From assembly GCF_056712565.1 (NCBI RefSeq), contig NZ_CM160072.1: 64,000 nt of DNA; one strand, given 5' to 3'. Position 1 is the stretch's first letter. Every line of letters starts with the position of its first letter. The position numbers are program-made. Positions 39,901 through 42,900 of this stretch are shown piece by piece.

Positions 39901-42900
39901 TTCGCTCGCGGCCTGCGCGCCATACTTCGCCAGGACCCGGATGTCGTCATGGTGGGGGAAATTCGTGATACAGAAACCGCGCAAATTGCGGTTCAGGCCT
40001 CGCTCACCGGCCATCTGGTACTCTCAACACTCCACACTAACAGTGCATCAGGCGCAGTGACCCGGCTCCGCGACATGGGCGTCGAATCATTCCTGCTTTC
40101 GTCTTCACTGGCAGGGATTATCGCGCAACGTCTGGTTCGTCGTCTGTGTCCGCAATGCCGACAATTCACGCCTGTATCGCCGCAACAAGCGCAGATGTTT
40201 AAACATCATCAGCTCGCGGTGACGACAATTGGCACTCCCGTAGGCTGCCCTCATTGCCATCAATCCGGCTACCAGGGGCGCATGGCGATCCACGAAATGA
40301 TGGTGGTGACGCCGGAATTGCGGGCCGCTATTCATGAAAATGTGGATGAACAAGCACTGGAGCGACTGGTCCGGCAACAACACAATGCCTTAATCAAAAA
40401 TGGCCTGCAAAAAGTGATACGCGGTGACACCTCCTGGGATGAGGTTATGCGCGTCGCCAGTGCCACGCTGGAGAACGAAGCATGAATTATCGCTATCGCG
40501 CCATGACCCAGGATGGTCAAAAATTGCAGGGGATCATTGATGCTAACGATGAACGTCAGGCACGACTGCGGCTGCGTGAAGAAGGGCTTTTCCTGTTGGA
40601 TATTCGCCCCCAAAAAAGTTCGGGAGTAAAAACACGTCGCCCGAGGATCAGCCATAGTGAACTAACGCTTTTCACCCGGCAGTTGGCAACCTTAAGCGCA
40701 GCGGCATTACCCCTGGAAGAGAGCCTTGCCGTAATTGGTCAACAAAGCAGTAATAATCGACTGGCTGACGTGTTAAATCAGGTACGCAGCGCCATCCTTG
40801 AAGGGCATCCCCTTTCCGATGCGTTACAACATTTTCCCACGCTTTTCGATTCGCTCTACCGTACCCTGGTAAAAGCGGGCGAAAAGAGCGGTCTGCTGGC
40901 CCCGGTGTTGGAAAAGCTGGCTGATTACAATGAAAACCGGCAGAAAATCCGCAGCAAGCTCATTCAGTCACTGATCTACCCCTGCATGCTCACTACGGTG
41001 GCGATTGTGGTCGTGATTATTCTCCTCACTGCTGTCGTGCCCAAAATTACCGAACAGTTCGTGCATATGAAGCAGCAACTGCCACTGAGTACACGCATTC
41101 TTTTAGGTCTGAGCGACACGTTGCAACGTACCGGCCCGACATTATTAGCGACAGTATTTATTGTCGCTGTGGGTTTCTGGCTCTGGTTAAAACGCGGCAA
41201 TAACCGCCACCGTTTTCATGCCATGTTACTGCGCGTTGCGCTCATCGGCCCGCTGATTTGCGCCATTAACAGCGCACGCTATCTCCGCACTTTAAGTATT
41301 TTGCAATCCAGCGGCGTCCCTCTGCTGGATGGGATGAATTTGTCCACCGAAAGCCTCAACAACCTCGAAATTCGCCAGCGCCTGGCAAATGCGGCAGAAA
41401 ACGTTCGCCAGGGTAACAGCATTCATCTTTCACTGGAACAAACCGCAATTTTCCCGCCGATGATGCTCTACATGGTGGCCTCTGGCGAAAAAAGCGGGCA
41501 ACTCGGCACGTTAATGGTCAGAGCCGCAGATAACCAGGAGACACTCCAACAAAATCGGATCGCCTTAACGCTCTCCATCTTCGAGCCAGCACTCATTATT
41601 ACGATGGCACTGATCGTCCTGTTTATTGTCGTGTCGGTACTCCAACCTCTTCTTCAACTTAACTCAATGATTAATTAAGGAAATCATATGCGCGCAACGG
41701 ATAAGCAACGCGGTTTTACATTACTGGAAATTATGGTGGTAATTGTCATCATTGGCGTACTCGCCAGCCTGGTGGTTCCCAACCTGATGGGCAATAAAGA
41801 AAAGGCGGATAAACAAAAAGCCGTCAGCGATATTGTGGCGCTGGAAAACGCCCTGGATATGTACAAGCTCGACAATCATCGCTATCCAACCACAAATCAG
41901 GGGCTTGAATCCTTAGTAGAAGCGCCGACACTGCCACCGCTGGCCGCAAACTATAACAAGGAAGGTTATATCAAGCGTCTGCCTGCCGATCCCTGGGGCA
42001 ATGATTATGTCCTCGTTAATCCTGGTGAGCATGGTGCATACGATCTGCTTTCAGCAGGACCCGATGGTGAAATGGGAACCGAGGACGACATCACCAACTG
42101 GGGTTTGAGCAAGAAGAAAAAGTAAGTCAGCGATGAATCAGCAACGCGGGTTTACCCTGCTGGAGATGATGCTGGTGCTGGCGCTGGTCGCTATCACGGC
42201 AAGTGTGGTGCTCTTCACATATGGTCGGGAGGATGCCGCCAGCACTCGTGCGCGCGAAACAGCGGCGCGGTTTACCGCTGCACTTGAATTAGCCATCGAC
42301 CGCGCCACGCTCAGTGGTCAGCCTGTCGGTATCCATTTCTCTGATTCAGCATGGCGCATTATGGTACCGGGCAAAACACCATCAGCCTGGCGCTGGGTTC
42401 CATTACAAGAAGATGCCGCAGACGAGAGCAAAAATGACTGGGGTGAAGAACTCTCAATTCAACTTCAGCCATTTAAACCTGATGACAGCAACCAACCGCA
42501 GGTGGTGATTCTGGCCGACGGACAAATCACGCCCTTCTCTTTGTTGATGGCTAATGCCGGGACCAGTAAGCCGCTCCTGACGTTAGTCAGTTCAGGCTCA
42601 TGGCCCCTGGATCAAACGCTCGCCAGAGATACCCGCCCATGAACAAACAATCAGGGATGACACTGCTTGAAGTCTTACTGGCGATGAGTATTTTCACCGC
42701 TGTTGCGCTGACTTTAATGAGCAGTATGCAAGGGCAACGAACTGCCATCGAGCGGATGCGTAATGAGACGCTGGCATTGTGGATAGCGGATAACCAGCTT
42801 CAGTCACAAGATTCATTCGACGAGGAAAACACGTCCAGTTCTGGCAAAGAGTTAATAAATGGCGAAGAGTTAATAAATGGCGAAGAGTGGAACTGGCGCA

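Follow-up and report, generated by a model that had tools for sequence, protein, structure and literature searches.

A low-copy, in-frame 18-bp tandem repeat, probably slippage-made and most likely near-neutral, in the pseudopilin gene gspI of Escherichia coli

The 64,000-nucleotide stretch analysed here (the window; contig NZ_CM160072.1 of RefSeq assembly GCF_056712565.1, one strand) is a part of the E. coli chromosome with the gene order rpsJ - gspBA - gspCDEFGHIJKLMO - bfr - bfd - chiA - tuf. Within its gspI gene, which encodes minor pseudopilin I of the K-12-type (alpha) type II secretion system (T2SS), an 18-bp unit, GAGTTAATAAATGGCGAA, occurs twice head-to-tail and in frame, and nowhere else in the window. 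An initial annotation, made from the sequence alone, had described the feature at 42849-42884 as a perfect tandem duplication adding a second ELINGE hexapeptide to GspI, and we find exactly this arrangement.

The gene lies between gspH and gspJ and its product is recognizable as GspI: residues 40-119 match the T2SSI domain (PF02501; 43.6 bits against a cut-off of 25), the N_methyl family is matched as well (PF07963; 28.5 bits, cut-off 21.2), and the N-terminal prepilin cleavage/methylation motif is present with its Glu at +5, the motif sequence being invariant across 106 homologues. The window gspI is 100% identical to the RefSeq gspI of strains UTI89, 536 and ATCC 11775 (protein WP_001041747.1, the two-copy form); the corresponding one-copy and three-copy proteins are WP_001041748.1 and WP_001041746.1, respectively. 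Six other GspI variants (P0008, P0011, P0047, P0067, P0068 and P0069) carry rare in-frame deletions of 5-12 residues in alpha1, the alpha1-beta1 loop or the first hairpin, most of them known from clusters with just one or two metagenome-assembly sequences.

Period-18 identity is perfect across 42847-42888, a tract longer than two units because the hexamer AAGAGT flanks every copy. Tandem Repeats Finder reports the array at 42842-42888 with a period of 18, 2.6 copies and 96% matches, the leading partial copy reading TGGCaAA instead of TGGCgAA. Some 1e-6 perfect 18-bp tandem duplications would be expected by chance per 64 kb, and none appeared in 100 first-order Markov simulations, which together exclude a chance origin. 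The underlying event was a duplication, since one-copy alleles exist with an otherwise identical gspI.

Copy number was surveyed in a collection of 5,426 complete E. coli genomes, 3,127 of which carry gspI. Alleles were counted with junction-specific 30-37-mers, each able to seed on one allele only; whole-gene BLAST identity bands are ambiguous for this purpose, as an 18-nt gap and a few single-nucleotide polymorphisms (SNPs) share a band. The exact one-copy junction was present in 2,863 genomes (a lower bound for one copy), a junction requiring at least two copies in 153, and one requiring at least three in four (ExPEC XM, PU-1, UM146 and EC13, with a gspI of 414 nt and 137 residues), which puts the number of two-copy genomes at ~149; ~110 further gspI genomes with diverged junctions were left unclassified. 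The zero-copy junction had no match among the complete genomes; in public read assemblies, five contigs encode a zero-copy allele (P0057; 119 residues, ...SSSG-EEWNW...), the DNA of which reads TCTGGCGAAGAGTGG. All more distant GspI relatives have the one-copy length, which indicates that one copy is the ancestral state; it is also the common one. E. coli K-12 itself has one copy, in a gspI with 8 substitutions relative to that of the window. The initial annotation had taken the repeat for a natural length polymorphism that keeps the frame, and had proposed a comparison with gspI of other strains, adding that the significance of the duplication would fall if both copy numbers were common in natural isolates. 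The polymorphism is real and both copy numbers are indeed common; the range extends beyond what had been foreseen, from 0 to 3 copies, and copy number differs even among near-identical haplotypes.

The one-copy allele already contains a substrate for slippage: two 11-mers, TGGCaAAGAGT and TGGCgAAGAGT, separated by TAATAAA and followed by GG, form a direct repeat with 10 of 11 positions identical (TGGCRAAGAGT) at 18-bp spacing. Slippage between them predicts exactly the observed duplication and, as its reciprocal, an 18-bp deletion such as the zero-copy allele shows. From this substrate we infer the process. The two 11-mers would misalign during replication, and 18 bp would be duplicated (from one copy to two) or deleted (from one to none). 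Based on weak homology, the first duplication would have been rare, probably occurring once on one phylogroup-B2-type gspI backbone. The duplicated tract would then pair with itself perfectly over 24 bp when shifted by 18 bp, and through this longer homology gains (two to three) and losses (two to one) could recur.

The distribution of alleles agrees with this scheme. Two- and three-copy alleles all sit on a single gspI backbone (150 genomes at ≥99% identity to the window gspI), and no copy has been gained in any of the >2,800 one-copy genomes on other backbones, which argues that the first duplication was rare and probably a single event. The same backbone also exists with one copy (100% identity in 60 of the 60 matches listed, including LF82, NRG 857C and PMV-1), and identity bands suggest that about 157 genomes are of this kind. 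Strain 536 and its relatives 317 and A24 have two copies in a local haplotype ~70 SNPs away from that of UTI89. Fifty-two of the 71 SNPs between 536 and UTI89 fall in gspE (30; window 39004-40485) and chiA (22; window 47843-50545), and the segment from gspF to gspL is nearly identical, with one SNP in the 1.8 kb around gspI. This pattern fits shared descent of the gspI segment with recombination in the flanks, and the gsp locus is, as judged from these alignments, a recombination mosaic. In the genomes compared, two copies are the typical state in the local gsp haplotypes of UTI89 type and 536 type and are in this sense a lineage marker; from the strains named, we take these haplotypes to correspond to B2 lineages such as sequence types ST95 and ST127.

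Later changes in copy number are visible at short evolutionary distances. Nine sequences of the UTI89-type haplotype, the window included, were compared across ~16 kb of aligned flanks; they differ pairwise by no more than 8 SNPs, yet one, two and three copies are all represented. UM146 (three copies) is separated from UTI89 (two copies) by 0 SNPs over ~16 kb, and PMV-1 (one copy) by 1 SNP in the same set of ungapped columns. EC13 (three copies) and APEC E19035 (one copy) have two private SNPs in common, and XM and PU-1 (three copies) are nested in a clade defined by a gspE stop codon, the rest of which has two copies. The SNP tree of the nine sequences requires at least five copy-number changes against 13 substitutions; this figure counts events and does not estimate a rate. 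Changes between genomes 0-2 SNPs apart over the 16-kb flanks, together with the 10/11 direct repeat, are what a slipped-strand mechanism, already named in the initial annotation, should leave behind. A less biased census, based on the UTI89-type gspH marker, comprised 130 complete genomes, 9 of them with one copy, ~117 with two and 4 with three; ~32 further two-copy genomes have the other allele of the gspH marker. These comparisons indicate that the tract is less stable once duplicated, and still occasionally gains and loses copies.

What the extra hexapeptide may do to the protein was addressed with AlphaFold2 monomer models of one- and two-copy GspI, computed from an alignment of 105 representatives of the family. 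The one-copy model (mean predicted local distance difference test, pLDDT, 86.0) has a helix at residues 9-56, beta1 at 66-73, a turn at N74-G75 and beta2 at 76-86; in the two-copy model (pLDDT 84.9) the helix spans 9-57, beta1 71-79, the turn N80-G81 and beta2 82-92. Confidence in the alpha1-beta1 block is 81 in the former and 57 in the latter, where the loop in question is formed by residues 61-70. In these models the copy adjoining the NG turn would keep the native position of beta1, and the other copy would displace SSSGK from the outer half of that strand, giving a helix-to-sheet loop six residues longer and less ordered. Mapping the insertion onto a GspI model, also proposed in the initial annotation, would thus place the added length in this loop, with the fold predicted to be kept. 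The two-copy model retains the pilin-like arrangement of a long alpha1 and an antiparallel beta-sheet known from XcpV and EpsI, and its Foldseek matches are 9a1f_R, 5bw0, 5vtm_V and 2ret, with template-modelling scores, normalized to the target, of 0.62-0.78.

The similarity to GspI, XcpV and EpsI of known structure (PF02501; 5BW0, 5VTM, 2RET, 9A1F) extends to the N-methylation motif, the long alpha1 followed by a small beta-sheet, the placement between gspH and gspJ, and the conserved W48, D51 and N52 of alpha1 and Trp of beta2. Differences from the solved homologues are the low identity (~20-26%) and the spacer from alpha1 to beta2, 31 residues here against a family median of 27. Measured from N52 to the conserved Trp (W84), this spacer has 25, 31 and 37 residues in the one-, two- and three-copy proteins, respectively, and ranges over 23-32 in the 105 representatives; two copies stay within that range. 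A sequence search of the PDB returned Pseudomonas aeruginosa XcpV alone (5BW0 and 5VTM; E about 1e-5), and the GspI-J-K complex of enterotoxigenic E. coli was in neither the PDB sequence matches nor the Foldseek matches; partner contacts were taken instead from the XcpVWX paper. The XcpV residues touching XcpW or XcpX belong to alpha1 (W48, D51, N52, M54 and Q58) and to the C-terminal strand (PMC6211770). In the window GspI, W48, D51 and N52 are conserved and lie outside the insertion. By this analogy, the fold of GspI and the alpha1 residues for contact with GspJ and GspK appear to be kept, and the extra hexapeptide would lie away from the contacts seen in the homologue. On the models, the variant is most likely neutral or close to it, with little if any effect on function.

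The state of the surrounding operon bears on the same question. The window is collinear with UTI89 over 18.4 kb, with 4 substitutions inside the gsp operon, and premature stop codons in gspE (S137*) and gspL (Q277*), neither of them covered by the initial annotation, set it apart from that strain (Table 1). Eighteen of the 5,426 complete genomes, APEC O1, ExPEC XM, PU-1 and poultry strains of serotype O1/O2:K1:H7 among them, have the same gspE stop, and RefSeq lists the gene as a pseudogene with an 'internal stop' in PU-1 and ExPEC XM. The gspL stop was found in 0 of the 5,426 complete genomes. In public read assemblies, at least 24 contigs code for the resulting 276-residue GspL, which indicates that the window represents a real sub-lineage, one whose gsp operon has two nonsense mutations. 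Both the ATPase GspE and the assembly-platform protein GspL are established as required for type II secretion. As both genes are truncated, the K-12-type T2SS is very likely inactive in the strain of the window, and the functional question about the repeat has no practical bearing there.

Table 1. Coordinates of the gspI repeat, its gene and the operon features described in the text
Feature	Position in window	Strand	Details
Repeat copy 1, GAGTTAATAAATGGCGAA	42849..42866	+	ELINGE, residues 71-76
Repeat copy 2, identical to copy 1	42867..42884	+	ELINGE, residues 77-82
Whole period-18 array	42842..42888	+	Imperfect leading partial copy TGGCAAA, trailing GAGT; Tandem Repeats Finder and repeat search
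AAGAGT microhomology	42847-42852, 42865-42870, 42883-42888	+	Within the period-18 array
gspI, minor pseudopilin I of K-12-type (alpha) T2SS, two-copy allele	42639..43034	+	Open reading frame, 131 aa; Pfam T2SSI and N_methyl
gspC-gspO operon (gspC D E F G H I J K L M O)	36243..46903	+	Collinear with the annotated UTI89 locus
gspE premature stop S137*, TCG to TAG	39412..39414	+	Difference from UTI89
gspL premature stop Q277*, CAG to TAG	45433..45435	+	Difference from UTI89

The gspC-O operon of K-12 has been described as cryptic and repressed by H-NS (PMC5797941), and as a chitinase-secreting T2SS-alpha, thought to export ChiA (PMC5797941; PMC3707838). The window shares this locus and its gene order (rpsJ-gspBA / gspC-O-bfr-bfd-chiA-tuf), and differs from K-12 in having two copies of the gspI unit instead of one and in the gspE and gspL stops. 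UTI89, a two-copy strain, showed no significant in vivo defect when deprived of the K-12-type secretin, the authors leaving the function of the system unconfirmed (PMC2649431). Inactivating lesions of the locus were frequent in the other B2 strains sampled: a stop in gspK (ATCC 25922), a frameshift in gspO (an ST131 isolate), stops in gspM and gspO (LF82), insertion sequence IS100 between gspM and gspO (536) and a frameshift in gspA (317). In MC1061, chiA has an internal stop. These six strains are a small, non-random sample. Independent lesions of this sort, together with the repeat, suggest relaxed selection on the K-12-type T2SS in phylogroup B2.

We regard it as highly probable that slipped-strand mispairing made and later changed the gspI feature, an in-frame variable-number tandem repeat (VNTR) of low copy number that is most likely neutral or nearly so. 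Several points weigh against this interpretation. The two-copy state reaches ~90% and is near fixation in a very successful extraintestinal-pathogenic haplotype, which is explained by hitch-hiking, although selection could explain it as well. With 37 residues, the three-copy spacer is longer than any in the family range, and monomer models leave an effect on the GspI-GspJ-GspK tip complex possible. Descent of the 536-type and UTI89-type duplications from one event is inferred only from the single SNP in 1.8 kb, the genomes compared in detail were picked as exceptions and give no rate, and independence of the copy-number changes assumes a short segment free of recombination.

Were selection responsible for the high frequency of two copies, the extra hexapeptide would be an adaptive variant altering the pseudopilus tip (for example in substrate handling or contact with the secretin), favoured in extraintestinal-pathogenic lineages. 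The two-copy allele is the majority form in the UTI89-type haplotype and occurs in the 536-type haplotype too, and both reading frame and predicted fold are kept. However, frame keeping is automatic with an 18-bp unit, copy number drifts to one and three inside near-identical haplotypes, and the operon of the same lineages gathers stops, frameshifts and an IS element (the gspE stop in 18 genomes and the two stops in the window among them). The secretin-less UTI89 mutant, moreover, had no significant in vivo phenotype (PMC2649431), and the insert is distant from the partner contacts of the homologue. An adaptive role is without support, and we judge it quite unlikely. In a more specific form of the idea, the number of ELINGE units would set the length of the first hairpin and of the alpha1-beta1 loop at the pseudopilus tip, two copies having been selected in extraintestinal-pathogenic lineages of UTI89 type and 536 type for a change in what the T2SS secretes or in its efficiency. 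The repeat would then act on the secretion machine as a 'length dial', both heritable and reversible, a proposal to which we attach very little credence.

The opposite view, that the insertion impairs GspI mildly or fully, as one more lesion in a dispensable and decaying operon, draws on the many independent inactivating mutations in this operon across B2 strains, on the drop in pLDDT of the alpha1-beta1 loop and on the length of the three-copy spacer, with which an effect is more possible. It is nevertheless unlikely: the two-copy spacer falls within the family range, the overall pLDDT is unchanged, and most two-copy strains examined (UTI89, ATCC 11775 and A24, for example) have all other gsp genes intact. 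Recurrent change in copy number could also recall a contingency locus, in which repeat number switches the expression or antigenic form of a surface structure. Here the unit is a multiple of three inside an open reading frame, every allele is in frame, neither frame nor promoter is switched, and the range is just 0-3 copies; the pseudopilus, in addition, is periplasmic and not surface-exposed, and such a role is extremely improbable. Equally hard to believe is a sequencing or assembly artefact: the identical two-copy junction recurs in 153 complete genomes that many laboratories assembled independently, on many platforms, and the 47-base array is shorter than a typical sequencing read. A near-neutral VNTR is the reading we retain.

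In its perfect head-to-tail copies, the microhomology of its progenitor, gains accompanied by the reciprocal deletion, and variation among near-identical genomes, the gspI repeat resembles slippage-made VNTRs such as those employed in multiple-locus VNTR analysis (MLVA) of E. coli. It differs from them in its very low range (0-3 copies) and in the restriction of its variation to one lineage backbone. One MLVA locus with an 18-bp repeat, CVN002, was rejected as a match indirectly, on allele range and not position, its alleles reaching 10 and 18 copies (PMC3407997). A literature search on gspI and tandem repeats found no paper on this repeat. Short tandem repeats made by slippage are a very familiar kind, of which the gspI locus is a new instance. 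It has little importance for biology at large, and may serve as a cheap length marker, two copies flagging two local gsp haplotypes in the collection searched. It is also a small, clean case in which a rare microhomology-mediated duplication would have created a faster-mutating locus, with the series 0, 1, 2 and 3 visible in public genomes.

A second in-frame 18-bp tandem repeat lies on the minus strand in chiA (49901-49948), where PAPDVK occurs three times in a linker of the chitinase (the third copy being PAPDVQ); in strain 1105, chiA is one unit shorter (2,685 against 2,703 nt). The chitinase with this repeat is the presumed substrate of the gsp secretion system. Weak tandem-repeat calls at 57318-57358 (the Lys/Ala/Pro-rich C-terminus of an FkpA-like protein) and 58695-58723 (the His-rich tail of a SlyD-like protein) correspond to ordinary low-complexity coding sequence.

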